Source: an uncultured bacterium (GTDB lineage: Bacteria > Patescibacteriota > Minisyncoccia > Phycocordibacterales > Phycocordibacteraceae). From it: a stretch of 62,962 nt of DNA. Of this stretch, positions 25,949-52,175 are shown in pieces (position 1 is the first letter of the stretch; the number at the start of each line of letters is the position of its first letter). Location: contig CAJEYI010000001.1 of the NCBI GenBank assembly GCA_903994795.1, positions 1-62,962 on the forward strand, written 5' to 3'. Under the pieces are notes generated by a model. That model did no database searches, was not told where the DNA came from, and saw nothing but the letters and a program-made list of their open reading frames with translations. The position numbers were made by a program, and so were the translations under genes.

Positions 25949-25981
25949 ATATAAAACCCAAATACTTGCTATGCTAGAGGT

Positions 25982-31912: not shown

Positions 31913-32755
31913 ATGAAAACATACAAACCAACCTCAAAAAGCCGACGACAGATGACAACCGTGACATATCGCGGTGTACTTTCTGGCGACAAGCCACACA
32001 AGGCTCTCCTCAGTACTAAGAAGAATCGTGCAGGACGAAACAATCAGGGTCGCATCACTACTCGTCACCAGGGTGGAGGTCACAAGAAGCGACTTCGCGA
32101 TGTAGATTTCGCATACAACAAGAAGAACATCCCTGCAAAGATCGAGACTATCGAATATGATCCATACCGAACAGCATTCATCGCTCTAGCGCTTTATGCA
32201 GATGGAGAGCGTCGATACGTAACAGCTATCAAGGATATGAAAGTTGGAGATACATTCATCGTTGGAGAAGATGCTCCTGTAAAGCCAGGAAATCGTATGC
32301 CTCTCGGCAAGATTCCTTCTGGAACATTTATCTACAATATCGAGCTTAAGCTCGGAGCAGGAGCTCGCCTAGCGCGCTCTGCTGGTAACTACGCAGAAGT
32401 TGTGGCTCATGACTCAGGATACGCCCAGATCAAGCTTCCTTCTTCTGAAATTCGTAAGGTGTCTGATCTTTGCTACGCATCTATCGGTGCAGTAAGTAAC
32501 GAAGAACAGCGACTTGTGAACTATGGAAAGGCTGGAAAGTCACGATGGATGGGTATTCGCCCTACAGTACGTGGTACAGCAATGAACCCTGTTGATCACC
32601 CACACGGAGGTGGTGAAGGACGTCAGGGACGTGGTCTACGACGCGCAAAGAGCATGTGGGGCAAGCCTACAGGAAAGGGTCAGAAGACTCGAACTCCAAA
32701 GAAGTACTCGAATTCATTTATCGTTTCAAGACGAAAGGTTGGGAAGAAGCGGTAG
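31913..32755 (+). CDS. rplB: 50S ribosomal protein L2
   Basis: Motifs RHQGGGHKK and NPVDHPHGGGEG. Confidence 0.97.
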   Translation: MKTYKPTSKSRRQMTTVTYRGVLSGDKPHKALLSTKKNRAGRNNQGRITTRHQGGGHKKRLRDVDFAYNKKNIPAKIETIEYDPYRTAFIALALYADGERRYVTAIKDMKVGDTFIVGEDAPVKPGNRMPLGKIPSGTFIYNIELKLGAGARLARSAGNYAEVVAHDSGYAQIKLPSSEIRKVSDLCYASIGAVSNEEQRLVNYGKAGKSRWMGIRPTVRGTAMNPVDHPHGGGEGRQGRGLRRAKSMWGKPTGKGQKTRTPKKYSNSFIVSRRKVGKKR

Positions 32756-32781
32756 TAGGCCTCTGGTAAAAAGAAGTTCGC

Positions 32782-32838
32782 AAAAGAATACGAAAAATGG
32801 CCCTCTAAATTCTGACGGGCCATTTTTCGTATTCTTTT
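32782..32838 (+). repeat. conserved-loop hairpin, copy 1 (22-bp stem, loop TCTAAATTCTGAC)
   Basis: Perfect inverted repeat AAAAGAATACGAAAAATGGCCC/GGGCCATTTTTCGTATTCTTTT, 26 nt after the rplB stop. Confidence 0.85.
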
Positions 32839-32949
32839 TGCCGTACCGAAAAGTTATCCACAGGCTTTATTTTCTCACTATTTTATTTTCATATTTATTT
32901 CAGCTCGCTATGCTACATTCTTGCCATACCAATTTAACGAAATACGAAT

Positions 32950-33255
32950 ATGGCACGAAAAAACCAAAGCACTCATACAACAGAAGTATTCATTAATAAC
33001 AATCATGCAGGCTACTCAGAACACGAGCATCTTTTGGAGCATGTTCATTTCCTAGAAGAACGAACTACCGAACTAGAAGAGAAAGTAGACTTCTTTCAGA
33101 CGATTTTCCAGGATTTACTAGATGATGAAGACGACGAGGATGAGGATACAGAAGATGAGGTAGGAGAAGATGAATACGAAGATGAAGAAGACCTCTTCGA
33201 AAATGGCCTGTGTGGCCATTCGTGTTGCTGTGTGTGGAGTCGTGTGGTGAGTTAG
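32950..33255 (+). CDS. hypothetical acidic protein with a Cys-rich C-terminus
   Basis: DDEDDEDEDTEDE run and a CGHSCCCVW tail. Inserted between rplB and rpsS. Confidence 0.4.
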   Translation: MARKNQSTHTTEVFINNNHAGYSEHEHLLEHVHFLEERTTELEEKVDFFQTIFQDLLDDEDDEDEDTEDEVGEDEYEDEEDLFENGLCGHSCCCVWSRVVS

Positions 33256-33297
33256 GGGTGTTTATAACCAAAAAATCACCATGATAAACTTACTACT

Positions 33298-33780
33298 ATG
33301 ACGGCGGACACAGAGCTAATTATTACTGAACTCACAAAAGTATTTGATTCTAAAATCGATCAATTAGGTAGTGAAATCAATGGAAGGTTCGAGCTGATGG
33401 ACACAGCTTTTGCTGATTTAGCATCTGCGATGCAGTATGGATTTGAGAAGGTTTACGATAGATTCGACGAGGTCGATGAGAGATTCGAGAATGTTGAGGG
33501 TAGATTAGGTAGAATCGAAGGCAGATCGGATAACTTTGAGAGCAGAATGAATAGAATCGATGAAAGTATCGAGTATTTGAAAGTAGAGATGAGAGACGTA
33601 AAGACGAGAGTCATTCACCTGGAGTCCTCTATGGAAGAAGTGCAGGAAAGTCTTGCAAATCTTGAAAACGCTGAAGAAAAAGACGCAAAAGCTACTATTA
33701 ATCACGAAACACGTATACAGAAGCTCGAAAAGGTAAATAAAATCAAACCGAAACCAGTGGCGCACTTATTGAATATATGA
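33298..33780 (+). CDS. heptad-repeat coiled-coil protein
   Basis: Six consecutive heptads of the form (D/E)xR(F/L/M)xx(V/I). Resembles the 51204-51608 product. Confidence 0.55.
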   Translation: MTADTELIITELTKVFDSKIDQLGSEINGRFELMDTAFADLASAMQYGFEKVYDRFDEVDERFENVEGRLGRIEGRSDNFESRMNRIDESIEYLKVEMRDVKTRVIHLESSMEEVQESLANLENAEEKDAKATINHETRIQKLEKVNKIKPKPVAHLLNI

Positions 33781-33820
33781 GCAGGAGAGGGCACAAGAAC
33801 CCTCATAAAGCCGTCATAAT

Positions 33821-33870
33821 TTGACAGTCTGCCTCATTTCGTATAGATTTTATCTATCCCGCGTCGCGGG
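33821..33870 (+). promoter_or_regulatory. candidate promoter plus leader hairpin of rpsS
   Basis: TTGACA (33821-33826) with TAGATT/TATAGA as -10. CCCGCG-T-CGCGGG hairpin (33858-33870), then CTTTTACTTCTC and the ATG. Confidence 0.45.
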
Positions 33871-33882
33871 CTTTTACTTCTC

Positions 33883-42469: not shown

Positions 42470-43747
42470 ATGATTACAAAGGCACTACACAAACTAAGAC
42501 TCGTCTTCACTGACTCGGCTATCCGCGCACGAATGCTTTTCCTTTTGGGAGCACTCGTCGTCTTCCGTTTCCTTGCTGCTATTCCAATTCCAGGAGTTGA
42601 TAAGAATGCACTTGCTTCATTCTTCCAGAACAATCAGTTCTTCGGACTCCTCAACGTCTTCTCTGGAGGTGGTTTTTCACGACTTTCAATTGTGATGCTT
42701 GGTGTTGGCCCATACATTACATCTTCTATCATCATGCAGCTTGCAACATTTGTATTCCCTCAGCTAAAGGAAATGCAGAACGAAGAGGGTGAAGCTGGAC
42801 GCACAAAGTTCATCATGTGGAGCCGAATGATTACTATTCCAATTGCAATTCTGCAGGGCGTAGCATTCCTTTCACTCCTTGAGTCACAAGGAATTATCGC
42901 AGGACCACTATCGTCACTCGCATTTGCTGCAAACGTCTTCCTCGTTGCGGGTGGATCAGTACTCCTTATGTGGATTGGTGAGCTTATTACTGAGTTTGGT
43001 ATCGGAAACGGTGTTTCACTCATCATCTTCGCAGGTATCGTTGCTCGACTTCCAGAAGGCATTTCTCAGACACTCTTCACGGCAACAACTGCTCAGATCC
43101 CTGCATACCTAGGATTCCTCGTTGTGGCAATCGCTGTCATCTACGCAGTGGTTGTGGTATCTGACGCTGAGCGATCAATTCCAATTGCATACGCACGCGC
43201 AAACCGAGCAGCAGCGCTTCAGAATGGTGGTGAGACATACCTCCCAATTCGTATTCTTCAGACTGGAGTTATTCCAATCATCTTCGCGCTTTCTCTACTC
43301 CTTCTCCCTCAGATGGCATTTACAGGCCTTACTGCAATCGGTATAAAGGGCCTCGCAGGAGCTTCAACATGGTACGCAGCATTCTCTGCAAACCTTCTTG
43401 AGTACGGTATCGTCTACTTCCTTCTTGTTATTCTATTCACCTATTTCTACACAACAGTTATCTTCGAACCTACACGTATGGCTGATAATCTCCAGAAATC
43501 AGGAGCATTCATTCCAGGTGTTCGTCCAGGAAAAGAGACTGAGAAGTACATCAGTGCAGTTGTGAACCGAATCACGCTTCCAGGAGCAGTCTTCCTCGGT
43601 TTCGTGGCGGTCATCCCATTCATTATTCAGGGTGTTACTGGTATCAGCGCTATTCTTGTGGGAGGTACAGCACTGTTGATTGCGGTGCAGGTGGTTCTCG
43701 ACCTTGTGCGAAAGGTGGATGCGCAGGCATCTTTGCGCGAATATTAG
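42470..43747 (+). CDS. secY: preprotein translocase subunit SecY
   Basis: 10-TM pattern, with the GVGPYITSSIIMQL and ITEFGIGNGVSLIIF motifs. Confidence 0.97.
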   Translation: MITKALHKLRLVFTDSAIRARMLFLLGALVVFRFLAAIPIPGVDKNALASFFQNNQFFGLLNVFSGGGFSRLSIVMLGVGPYITSSIIMQLATFVFPQLKEMQNEEGEAGRTKFIMWSRMITIPIAILQGVAFLSLLESQGIIAGPLSSLAFAANVFLVAGGSVLLMWIGELITEFGIGNGVSLIIFAGIVARLPEGISQTLFTATTAQIPAYLGFLVVAIAVIYAVVVVSDAERSIPIAYARANRAAALQNGGETYLPIRILQTGVIPIIFALSLLLLPQMAFTGLTAIGIKGLAGASTWYAAFSANLLEYGIVYFLLVILFTYFYTTVIFEPTRMADNLQKSGAFIPGVRPGKETEKYISAVVNRITLPGAVFLGFVAVIPFIIQGVTGISAILVGGTALLIAVQVVLDLVRKVDAQASLREY

Positions 43748-43773
43748 AATGCTTTAAAGATATAGAAGGGTAA

Positions 43774-43828
43774 GTAAAAAGCCTGAACGATTTCTCTAAA
43801 TTCTGACGAAATCATTCAGGCTTTTTAC
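43774..43828 (+). repeat. conserved-loop hairpin, copy 2 (21-bp stem with one C.A mismatch, loop TCTAAATTCTGAC)
   Basis: GTAAAAAGCCTGAACGATTTC/GAAATCATTCAGGCTTTTTAC, 27 nt after the secY stop. Confidence 0.85.
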
Positions 43829-43850
43829 GTTGCCTCACAGTTTACTTTTA

Positions 43851-44411
43851 TTACGCTTCAAGCCAGTTTTTGTATGAGTTTGTAATCATTTGAGCGACCT
43901 CTACGAGGGGGTATTTTGAGGTATCGATAACTAAGTCGAAAGGTGTTAAATCAAGCGCGTCTACATTATAGAGATTCATGTAACGTTTCTGCTCGCTGGT
44001 TCGGCGGTCAATTATATTGTTGTAAACTGCGTCTACAGAATCTCCACTCTCACTTACACGACCAGATTCTTGAATTTGTTTGTAAATTCGTTCAGCTGCG
44101 ATATGTGGGTCTAGGGAAAGATAGACTTTAAAGGAGTTCGGCATCCAGTGATATGCCATCCGAGAGTCGATAAGTAAATCAGATTCGTTCGCCATGTCTT
44201 GCAATTTCTTGTCTACCGCATGATCTATTTCGTGCTCAAGCTCTGCTTGCTGATTAATTTCTGTAATTGATACGCCTCGTTCTGCCGCAATTGATCTAAA
44301 GAGGTCTCCTGATGAGAAATGTCGGTATTCAAGGGTGCTTGCTACTAATTTCCCTGTGGAAGACTTTCCGCTTCCGAGTGATCCGGCAATTGTAATGATT
44401 TTTGTTCTCAT
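43851..44411 (-). CDS. cytidylate kinase-like (archaeal-type Cmk / AAA_18) P-loop kinase
   Basis: The P-loop GSLGSGKSS and the overall pattern resemble the Cytidylate_kin2 family. Antisense to the operon. Confidence 0.65.
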   Translation of the reverse strand: MRTKIITIAGSLGSGKSSTGKLVASTLEYRHFSSGDLFRSIAAERGVSITEINQQAELEHEIDHAVDKKLQDMANESDLLIDSRMAYHWMPNSFKVYLSLDPHIAAERIYKQIQESGRVSESGDSVDAVYNNIIDRRTSEQKRYMNLYNVDALDLTPFDLVIDTSKYPLVEVAQMITNSYKNWLEA

Positions 44412-49816: not shown

Positions 49817-51217
49817 ATGTCACTACGTCTCACTTGCTACGGCGCTGCCGAAACTGTAACTGGTTCTAATTTCTTAGTGGAAGGTCCCAAAGGAAAGATT
49901 CTTATAGATTGTGGTATTGAGCAGGGAAGGGACTTTGTGGAGTCAGAAATGTATAAGCCGTTTGCGTATGATGTTCCTTCAATAGACGCACTCGTCATAA
50001 CGCATGCACACCTCGACCACATTGGTCGCGCACCGAAACTCATAAATGAAGGCTTTAAGGGTCGAGTGTTCACAACAGCTCCAACACGAGACCTCACCGA
50101 AATAATGCTTCGTGATACCGTGAAGATATTGGCGGAGACTGCTAGAGAGCACGGCCTCCCACTTCTCTATACAGATGACGACGTAACCAAGTTCCTTGAG
50201 AAGATTGAGGTCATTGCATATCACGAAGAAAAAGAAGTTGCTCCAGGGCTCTCAATCTTCTTGCGTCAGACCGGTCACATACTTGGTTCTGCAAGCGTGC
50301 GCATAAAAGATTTATCTGACGATACATCCCTCGCTCTCACTGGAGACATTGGAAATATGCCATCGCCATATCTTCCTGACTGGGAAGCGATCACTGATGC
50401 AGATGCGGTGCTTATGGAAAGTGTGTATGGAGACAGGGTAAATGCGGATAAGGAGGATCGTGTCGCGCTTTTGCGCGACACGATCAAGAAGTCCGTCGCT
50501 CGCGGCGGCGTCATTCTCATACCAGCATTCTCTATTGAGCGCACTCAGCTCATGCTCTACGAATTTTCAAAGTTAATGGAAGAAGGTGAGATTCCTCATG
50601 TGCCGGTGTATCTTGACTCACCACTCGCCATTAAAGCTACAGAAGTATATGAGAAGTGGGGGAGCGAATTCTTCAAGTCTGCTGCAGAAGAAGAGTTGCA
50701 CCGACGACATGATCTATTTAAATTCCCATTTCTCATGGAGACCCCTTCACGCCAGGATTCTGAGGAAATTGCAAAAGCACCTAATCCTAAAATCATTATG
50801 GCTGGCGCTGGCATGTCGCATGGTGGCCGTATCGGACATTGGGAGCAAAAATACCTTCCAGACCCAACGACCACACTTATCATTGTGGGCTATCAGGCTC
50901 CAGGAAGCCCTGGACGCTTGCTTCAGGATGGTGCGCCCCATGTACGTCTCGGAGGTGTAGATGTGCGTGTACGAGCCAAAATAGAGACTTTTGTGGGGTG
51001 GTCAGCACACGCAGACAGAGACGGATTACTTGATTTTGCAAAAGCGGCACTCCCAGAGTCAGGAGGACGCACGAAGAACTTCTTCGTGGCACTCGGCGAG
51101 CCGTCCTCGGCTCGCTTCCTCGCGCAGCGAATTCATGATTATCTAGGCACGAATGCCATAGTGCCCACACAGGGAGAAAGCTTTGAGATCACAAAAGATA
51201 AGATTAAGCGACTATAA
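49817..51217 (+). CDS. MBL-fold beta-CASP ribonuclease-like hydrolase
   Basis: ITHAHLDHIG, the beta-CASP pattern, and a C-terminal SAHAD. Confidence 0.8.
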   Translation: MSLRLTCYGAAETVTGSNFLVEGPKGKILIDCGIEQGRDFVESEMYKPFAYDVPSIDALVITHAHLDHIGRAPKLINEGFKGRVFTTAPTRDLTEIMLRDTVKILAETAREHGLPLLYTDDDVTKFLEKIEVIAYHEEKEVAPGLSIFLRQTGHILGSASVRIKDLSDDTSLALTGDIGNMPSPYLPDWEAITDADAVLMESVYGDRVNADKEDRVALLRDTIKKSVARGGVILIPAFSIERTQLMLYEFSKLMEEGEIPHVPVYLDSPLAIKATEVYEKWGSEFFKSAAEEELHRRHDLFKFPFLMETPSRQDSEEIAKAPNPKIIMAGAGMSHGGRIGHWEQKYLPDPTTTLIIVGYQAPGSPGRLLQDGAPHVRLGGVDVRVRAKIETFVGWSAHADRDGLLDFAKAALPESGGRTKNFFVALGEPSSARFLAQRIHDYLGTNAIVPTQGESFEITKDKIKRL

Positions 51218-51608
51218 ATCGTGATTCGAAGTGCTCTTCCAGTGTCATTAGGTCATCTTTGGTTGCATAGTTTTCTTCTATAATATCGAGCTTTTCTTCA
51301 ACGACATTGATTTTATTTTCAATAACGTCGACCTTGTTCTCAATTACGGTAACCTTTCGCTCTATAGCGTCAACTTTTTTCTCTACAGTATCAACCTTGT
51401 CCTCAAGTACGTCGAGTCTATCTTCGACAACTTGGAAGTTTGCAGTTACTTCTGCAAAGCCTCGCGCAGTTATGGCTGCGAGTTCGTCTATCTTTTCGTC
51501 AATTTTTTGATCTACCTGATCAAATCGTACGTTCATTTCCGTACTTAGTGCGCTGAGTTTGTTATCAATATTCCCAATTTGTTCGCTTAATGTTTCTAGT
51601 GTCATCAT
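51204..51608 (-). CDS. heptad-repeat coiled-coil protein
   Basis: Repeats LEDKVDT VEKKVDA IERKVTV IENKVDV IENKINV VEEKLDI. Resembles the 33298-33780 product. Confidence 0.55.
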   Translation of the reverse strand: MMTLETLSEQIGNIDNKLSALSTEMNVRFDQVDQKIDEKIDELAAITARGFAEVTANFQVVEDRLDVLEDKVDTVEKKVDAIERKVTVIENKVDVIENKINVVEEKLDIIEENYATKDDLMTLEEHFESRFIVA

Positions 51609-51824: not shown

Positions 51825-52175
51825 TTACGCTTCTACCTGCTTCGCAATTCTTGTGAAAATCTCTGGGTGCATCTGTGCGAATTCAGAAAGTACCTTTCGG
51901 TCGAGTTCCATTTCCTTTTTCTTCATGTTTGCAATGAATGTGCTGTATGACTTGAAACCATTCTCACGAATAGCAGCATTGAGACGTACGATCCAGAGGG
52001 ATCGGTAGTTGCTCTTATTATCTTTGCGGTGAGCAAAGGAGTTCTTTCCCGCGTGTACGAGGGACTCTTTCGCTGCTCGCTCTTTAGTTGAGCGACCATG
52101 ACGATATCCCTTCGCGCGCTTGAGAACGCTGCGACGTCGTTTTAGTGAGATGACTCCTCCTTTTACTCGTGACAT
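51825..52175 (-). CDS. rplT: 50S ribosomal protein L20
   Basis: MSRVKGG...RR pattern. Confidence 0.95.
   Translation of the reverse strand: MSRVKGGVISLKRRRSVLKRAKGYRHGRSTKERAAKESLVHAGKNSFAHRKDNKSNYRSLWIVRLNAAIRENGFKSYSTFIANMKKKEMELDRKVLSEFAQMHPEIFTRIAKQVEA

Follow-up and report, generated by a model that had tools for sequence, protein, structure and literature searches.

In the window (the whole stretch of 62,962 nucleotides that was analyzed), an inverted repeat lies between secY and a convergent gene for a cytidylate-kinase-like protein, 26 nt downstream of the end of secY at 43747 and 22 nt from the end of the convergent gene at 43851. The preliminary description had placed a 21-bp stem with a single C.A mismatch at this site, between secY and an antisense cmk-like gene, and both statements are borne out: the repeat has 21 stem positions (20 Watson-Crick pairs and the C.A mismatch at 43788/43814), and Pfam supports both flanking genes. 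On the minus strand the C.A mismatch becomes a G.U wobble, and the stem is therefore uninterrupted there. The calculated RNA folding energies are -35.5 kcal/mol for the plus strand (z = -8.66) and -35.0 kcal/mol for the minus strand (z = -8.31), and for either strand none of 200 shuffled sequences equalled the observed value. The features of the locus and the related features in the window are collected in Table 1.

Table 1. Features of the hairpin downstream of secY, its flanking genes and the two further copies in the window
Feature	Position	Strand	Remark
secY, upstream in the sense of the loop	42470..43747	+	Pfam SecY, E = 3.5e-95
Whole hairpin (copy 2)	43774..43828	+	Covariance model R1 match 43766-43836, E = 2.2e-8
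5′ arm GTAAAAAGCCTGAACGATTTC	43774..43794	+	A-run 43776-43780 inside
Conserved loop TCTAAATTCTGAC	43795..43807	+	13 nt
Loop plus closing pair, CTCTAAATTCTGACG	43794-43808	+	
3′ arm GAAATCATTCAGGCTTTTTAC	43808..43828	+	T-run 43822-43826 inside
Convergent cytidylate-kinase-like gene	43851..44411	-	186 aa; Pfam Cytidylate_kin, E = 6.9e-15
Copy 1, perfect 22-bp stem, same loop	32782..32838	+	26 nt past rplB stop codon (32753-32755)
Copy 3, perfect 27-bp stem, same loop	51744..51810	-	Downstream of rplT
rplT, upstream of copy 3	51825-52175	-	

The GC-containing part of the stem (43781-43794/43808-43821) is followed directly by TTTTT, and the arrangement is mirrored on the minus strand. Since an A-run precedes the stem and a T-run follows it, each of the two converging transcripts would end in a hairpin plus U5. 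Judged from sequence, a bidirectional intrinsic terminator at 43774-43828 is plausible, and the same A-tract/stem/T-tract design is present at other operon ends of the genome. The earlier suggestion that the hairpin could terminate both transcripts thus agrees with its anatomy, but a terminator alone leaves the conserved loop unexplained. A consensus terminator scan made no call at 43774-43828, because the 13-nt loop exceeds the 3-8 nt that the scan accepts. The genome has 109 perfect hairpins with stems of 12 bp or longer; loop length is 3-5 nt in 73 of them, and copies of the element described here account for three of the four longest stems in this set. Long loops make terminators weaker, and termination by itself does not account for a 13-nt loop that is kept where SecY is only about 70% identical across species.

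The source genome (G000; 902,262 bases in 66 contigs, 45.7% GC, 96% completeness) contains the exact 13-mer TCTAAATTCTGAC four times: at 32804 (+), 43795 (+) and 51771 (-) in the window and at 25969 (-) on contig C9. The loop had been reported to be identical to that at 32804-32816, which is correct, and both copies listed for the window are present, but a third, on the minus strand, had been overlooked. At this genome size we calculate a chance expectation of about 0.03 exact matches; all four copies are hairpin loops, and a chance origin was ruled out. The stems of copies 1-4 comprise 22, 21, 27 and 25 positions (at most one mismatch allowed) and are unrelated in sequence, as had been stated for the first two. 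Over the four copies, 94 of the 95 stem positions are paired, all loops are closed by a C-G pair, and CCC/GGG adjoins the loop in three. The loop of the hairpin after secY has the pattern CTCTAAATTCTKACG and a C-G closing pair; its stem exceeds the 12-bp minimum by which we define the family, and the hairpin lies past a stop codon, in sense orientation.

The genes upstream of the four copies are rplB, secY, rplT and rplL, and in each case the loop is in the sense of the upstream gene. Where the end of the upstream gene is the only adjacent gene end, the orientation is sense in three of three copies in this genome and in most copies of relatives. The rplT gene is preceded by infC-rpmI, and rplL by an L10 leader and rplJ. 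The rplB copy lies inside the classical S10 operon order. Between rplB and rpsS, this genome and all five relatives checked carry 1.0-2.5 kb of unrelated, species-specific DNA, and similarity between genomes resumes at a promoter-like TTGACA-N17-TATAGA sequence 63 nt upstream of rpsS (in the window, the gap spans 32756-33882 and the promoter-like site is at ca. 33820-33848). Since this separation is present in five of five relatives, the rplB copy, too, is located at an operon end. All four copies thus follow the last gene of a highly expressed operon. For annotation, the element marks operon ends, and the S10 operon of the genus is split after rplB.

Downstream of copies 1 and 3, weakly related coiled-coil proteins are encoded at 33298-33780 (+) and 51204-51608 (-), with 24% identity and E = 1e-6 in a two-sequence BLASTP comparison. 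No Pfam match was obtained for a highly acidic 101-aa ORF at 32950-33255. On contig C9, a gene of the zeta-toxin family (L004:740-1447, minus strand; Pfam E = 3.9e-30) stands between the rplL hairpin (copy 4) and a conserved neighbor gene. We considered the hairpins as cassette boundaries and rejected this: the rplB-rpsS island is present in five of five relatives checked, without the loop described here (type A); in G028 the conserved neighbor directly follows the rplL hairpin; and the DNAs downstream of the four copies do not align with one another. The genome also contains two candidate members of the family. One is a 16-bp hairpin after rpoC (C2:7739-7786) with the loop TCCCGCTTTAACGGGG, which ends in CTTWACGGG as the loops of relatives do; the other is a 13-bp hairpin 1 nt past a release-factor gene (C3:13768-13807) with the loop CTCAAATGAATGAA and a stem resembling that of copy 3. 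Model R1 (see below) reported neither.

Genome sizes in the genus range from 0.4 to 1.5 Mb, and rplL relatives carry the labels Minisyncoccia, Campbellbacteria, Nomurabacteria and Parcubacteria; both assign the organism to the Patescibacteria/CPR. All 222 genomes of the genus were searched with the 15-mer, one mismatch being allowed. Matches were found in ten genomes and are hairpin loops in six of these (G000, G028, G081, G203, G217 and G237); each of the other four has a single match, none of them a hairpin. The same loop therefore caps hairpins in at least five other species of the genus, and G191 has a long form. The commonest variant carries T instead of G at loop position 11. We built a covariance model, R1, from an alignment of 15 copies (A1), in which 14 of the 15 columns from the closing C to the closing G are invariant. 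In the source genome the model matched only the four known copies; among 151 genus genomes it gave 19 matches in G028, four in G237, three each in G081 and G217 and one in G191.

The element recurs at the ends of orthologous genes. It follows rplL in five genomes (G000, G028, G081, G217 and G237), ftsZ in G081 and G203, and smc in G028 and G237; further upstream genes include gyrA and an mscS-like gene. At the same orthologous gene end, the stems differ between genomes. In about 20 of the 28 copies outside the source genome, the model match begins between -5 and +8 nt from the stop codon of a sense ORF.

In relatives the unit spans ca. 70 nt. Its outer stem (GCNNGC) is near-palindromic; next come, in order, a short internal loop, 5-9 bp of variable stem, a conserved bulged C, an inner AACC/GGTT stem, the loop, and CUCC-type flanks that are conserved and single-stranded. 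Other loops, e.g., CTGGAGTACCTTAACG, are found on the same scaffold, with the 3′ part CYTNACG common to all. Three long-form copies contain an extra covarying hairpin of ca. 45-49 nt nested in the loop and flanked by a CTCTA repeat. The element of relatives has no U-tract, and an ordinary terminator follows it in both cases inspected; it follows that the element is something other than the terminator there. Judged by eye, the 3′ flank (CCGTAG) could pair with the 3′ part of the loop as a pseudoknot in the T-variant copies of relatives, but this pairing is not conserved in the source genome, and we did not retain it. After ftsZ in G217 and G191 (L139 and L140), elements of ca. 190 nt share the outer flanks of the unit and also have a variable, paired stem, but an interior of 125-130 nt takes the place of the loop; the loop of one interior hairpin repeats the flank motif CGCTCCGCT.

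Within the genus the family is patchy. The relatives nearest to the source genome by secY DNA identity (G132, 80%; G123, 77%; G077, 76%) have no type-A loop, and the carriers of this loop are 70-73% identical. In the ten nearest relatives and five carriers, secY is followed by other sequence, namely, a co-oriented kinase gene, an ordinary terminator (G242) or a different structured element (G081, G203, G028 and G201), and no precise empty site after secY was seen in this set. The different structured element (L143, L146, L147 and L161) has the layout GGGTCCC ... CCGTA-hairpin ... CCCGCG and no Rfam match.

A second loop class was found in the nearer relatives of the source genome, at partly the same gene ends as type A. 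G077 contains perfect hairpins of 23-28 bp with the loop CGAAAGCACTTAGG, or CGAAACCACTTAGA after rplL, and CGAAAGCACTTAGG caps unrelated long stems in G132, G002, G161 and G244. In a genus-wide search, seven of 31 examined contexts of this class were hairpins, the remainder being about as frequent as in a reversed-pattern control, i.e., at chance level. Second-class copies after rplL, the mscS-like gene, ftsZ (twice) and a gene for a 490-aa protein are in sense orientation in five of five cases. It had been asked whether, where genes converge, the loop always follows the plus-sense upstream operon. It follows secY at the site studied here, but in G077 and G161 the second-class loops at an orthologous convergent pair face opposite genes, and orientation at convergent sites is thus not fixed. 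When the second-class loop was compared with the type-A T variant, 32 of 5000 shuffles matched the score of the reverse complement and 828 of 5000 that of the forward sequence; for the 8-nt loop of the 28-bp rplL hairpin of G133 against the G variant, the numbers were 21 and 4239 of 5000, respectively. We offer no explanation for this alignment to the type-A reverse complement and build nothing on it.

Outside the genus, three pattern matches occurred in a sample of 401 genomes of the order (395 of them from outside the genus), with about one expected by chance according to our own arithmetic, and none was a hairpin. Model R1 found no match in 28 rplL loci of other Patescibacteria, and a scan of viral contigs gave none. 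Of 13 stretches with the 19-mer in metagenome contigs, six are hairpins; one of these follows rplT and has a further, different stem (L221), and two others have stems of 28 and 30 bp. Eleven loci compared with Rfam 15 at E ≤ 1 (or 0.1) had only spurious, sub-threshold overlaps with microRNA-type hairpins, and seven further loci with long forms had no matches. The listings and abstracts returned by a full-text literature search mention no such element. On the basis of these searches, the conserved-loop hairpin family is undescribed and restricted to the genus.

The stems of the family covary. In 32 distinct sequences, 92.8% of the cells are paired and double changes are present in 11 of the 12 pairs; the observed covariation score was reached by none of 500 shuffles, and pairing fell to 57-60% when the partner was slid by one column, although the alignment had been fitted to the model, which somewhat favors the structure. 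On the sense strand, G.U and A.C pairs number 12 and 11 in all rows and six and eight when the source genome and weak rows are left out. A stem selected only as sense RNA should favor G.U, and the equal counts speak against such selection. As in the source genome, long stems (18-30 bp) in G077, G132, G133 and metagenome contigs are close to perfect; this suggests that one arm is corrected against the other at the DNA level, and not that compensatory changes accumulate slowly. Five copies in G028 have one shared stem and different loops, as though they had proliferated or been exchanged as DNA. In small genomes, moreover, sense orientation coincides with co-orientation with replication, and orientation alone is thus no proof of an RNA role. 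On sequence evidence, a role at the RNA level is supported by sense orientation, by the closeness to stop codons and by the asymmetric bulge and flanks; it is weakened by the equality of G.U and A.C, by the perfect long stems, by the stem multiplication in G028 and by tandem and half copies.

Known systems resemble the element in part. Like bidirectional intrinsic terminators, it combines an A-tract, a GC-containing stem and a U-tract at convergent genes or operon ends and is stable on both strands; unlike them, it has a conserved loop of 13 nt and stems of 21-27 bp, and the form found in relatives dispenses with the U-tract and has a separate terminator after it. REP sequences and BIMEs are likewise multi-copy palindromes, imperfect or perfect, in 3′ untranslated regions, often near stop codons, where REPs lower translation, and their copy number varies between species. 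REPs, however, conserve the stem and a 5′ GTAG and leave the loop free to vary, the reverse of what is seen here. The sharing of stems among copies, a REP/RAYT feature, is absent from the source genome and partly present in G028. MITEs and insertion sequences should have terminal inverted repeats of conserved sequence and target-site duplications that differ by site; the flanks of our element, in contrast, carry one and the same motif everywhere and make up the outer stem.

Integron attC sites also conserve structure and not sequence, start right after a stop codon and have an extrahelical base, but their conserved cores are at the base of the stem and the center is variable, whereas the center of our element is conserved. 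A GTTAGAT-type motif of relatives adjoins the loop instead of lying at the base and is absent from the source genome. The best-known case of a conserved loop on a variable stem at the DNA level is provided by origins and ends cut by HUH endonucleases, in which a conserved loop motif is presented on variable stems in small ssDNA replicons; the element is, in contrast, chromosomal and located at orthologous gene ends, and a search with PF01797 revealed no associated Rep or transposase. Antitermination hairpins, among them phage lambda nut boxB and put, are small, and their loop is read by a factor that changes RNA polymerase read-through, but they reside in leaders, whereas the element comes after stop codons and has no Rfam match. 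The IRE/IRP system and the histone mRNA 3′ stem-loop could serve as a working analogy for a post-transcriptional regulon: a UTR hairpin on a variable stem is recognized through its conserved apical loop, and the bulged C recalls the form found in relatives. There is no sequence similarity, the domain of life is a different one, and a reader is only putative here.

The explanation that we favor, at about even confidence, is a lineage-specific 3′-end element whose loop is recognized in trans and which is merged here with a terminator. The hairpin at 43774-43828 belongs to an element with four copies in this genome and dozens in the genus, in which a long stem, free in sequence, carries a conserved loop of 13-15 nt. 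In the source genome the element would be merged with the intrinsic terminator of the operon, and this copy most likely ends both the spc/secY and the convergent cmk-like transcripts, although the loop would not be required for termination as such. Since the loop is kept even though long loops weaken terminators, and since the element is distinct from the terminator in relatives, a role in recognition is favored. We infer that a trans-acting factor, either a protein or another RNA, may read the loop on the RNA. Such a factor would link the fates of growth-related messages (ribosomal-protein operons, secY, ftsZ and smc) and could act via 3′-end stability, processing or read-through.

More tentatively, the genus may possess a loop-and-reader system, in which 3′-end hairpins mark core growth genes and the apical loop serves as the address. 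It is possible, though to be treated with reserve, that the members of such a regulon are ribosomal-protein operons, secY, ftsZ, smc and gyrA, and that their stems are kept perfect by correction between the arms at the DNA level. The change of loop class between lineages (TCTAAATTCTKAC, CGAAAGCACTTAGG and others) would fit co-evolution with the putative reader. If real, this would be a new kind of 3′-end regulon in bacteria with very few known regulators. To our knowledge, CPR/Patescibacteria have tiny genomes with few recognizable regulators and almost no described non-coding elements. With its constant loop, its free stem, its recurrence after the same core genes and its loop classes, at least two of which are lineage-specific, the family provides a concrete, testable handle on post-transcriptional or DNA-level control in these bacteria, and it offers a clean natural system in which to ask what maintains long perfect palindromes.

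A serious rival, which we hold to be possible but would not bet on, is a selfish or domesticated palindromic DNA element of REP/MITE type. The hairpin would form in single-stranded DNA, and an enzyme that recognizes or cuts the loop would copy, correct or move the element; the position at gene ends would reflect tolerated insertion and the sense orientation the direction of replication. The 19 model matches in G028, with their subfamily of five copies on the same stem, agree with this, and so do the tandem and half copies, among them a second copy in G081 (L007) whose arms are unpaired and whose right arm resembles that of another G081 copy. The three long forms with their hairpin inserted in the loop between CTCTA repeats, the perfection of long stems and the near-equal numbers of G.U and A.C point the same way, as do the patchiness of the family, with secY followed by other sequence in G132, G077 and G123, and the greater similarity of the second-class loop to the type-A reverse complement, as if loops flipped between perfect arms. 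Yet occurrence at the same gene ends in species with proteins of ca. 70-85% identity implies long retention or repeated targeting. Neither shared terminal inverted repeats nor site-specific duplications are present, and the outer stem is formed by the near-palindromic GCTCGC repeat of the flanks, which covaries in several copies. The Y1/RAYT transposase (PF01797) is absent from all four relatives searched (G028, G081, G237 and G217), and the four copies of the source genome share only the loop, unlike a transposed unit. The sole PF01797 match in the source genome is a Y1 IS200/RAYT-like transposase gene (L176:1159-1923, minus strand) on contig C39, which comprises 4094 bases and, at 62.7% GC against 45-46% in C1 and C9, is probably mis-binned foreign DNA.

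It is improbable, in our judgment, that the hairpin together with its terminator is released from the mRNA as a 3′-UTR-derived small RNA, with the loop as the seed for target RNAs. A loop that is conserved and single-stranded, carried by a stable terminator hairpin and present several times per genome, would suit such a molecule, and multi-copy small RNA families with conserved loops exist in Firmicutes. However, the search for conserved complementary sites was negative. The closest look-alike, in the 16S leader of the source genome, has the sense of the loop itself and is not shared by G028 or G081, and a fixed duplex would be disrupted by the G/T polymorphism at loop position 11. We give equally little credence to the idea that these are ordinary terminators whose functionless loops became alike via short-patch gene conversion between hairpins. 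The genome is indeed full of long perfect terminator hairpins, and the CCC/GGG next to the loop in three of the four copies could seed conversion; but the loop has been kept in at least six species and in metagenome contigs while the surroundings diverged, and a neutral loop that weakens a terminator, in comparison with the 3-5 nt loops prevailing in the genome, should have been lost.

The look-alike, GTTCTAAATTAGACG, is located ca. 50 nt before the 5′ end of the 16S rRNA on contig C9 and shares eight contiguous bases plus GACG with the loop. A link to rRNA leaders was dropped, as the aligned positions differ in G028 and G081; a boxA-like motif, sought in the rRNA leaders, had only a weak match, in the 23S leader. 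The 16S gene (C9:2911-4368) is unlinked from the 23S gene, which lies 13.5 kb away. The latter (C9:17898-22236) spans 4.3 kb compared with 2.9 kb for the model and so contains one or more insertions, and the 23S gene of G028 spans 3.9 kb.
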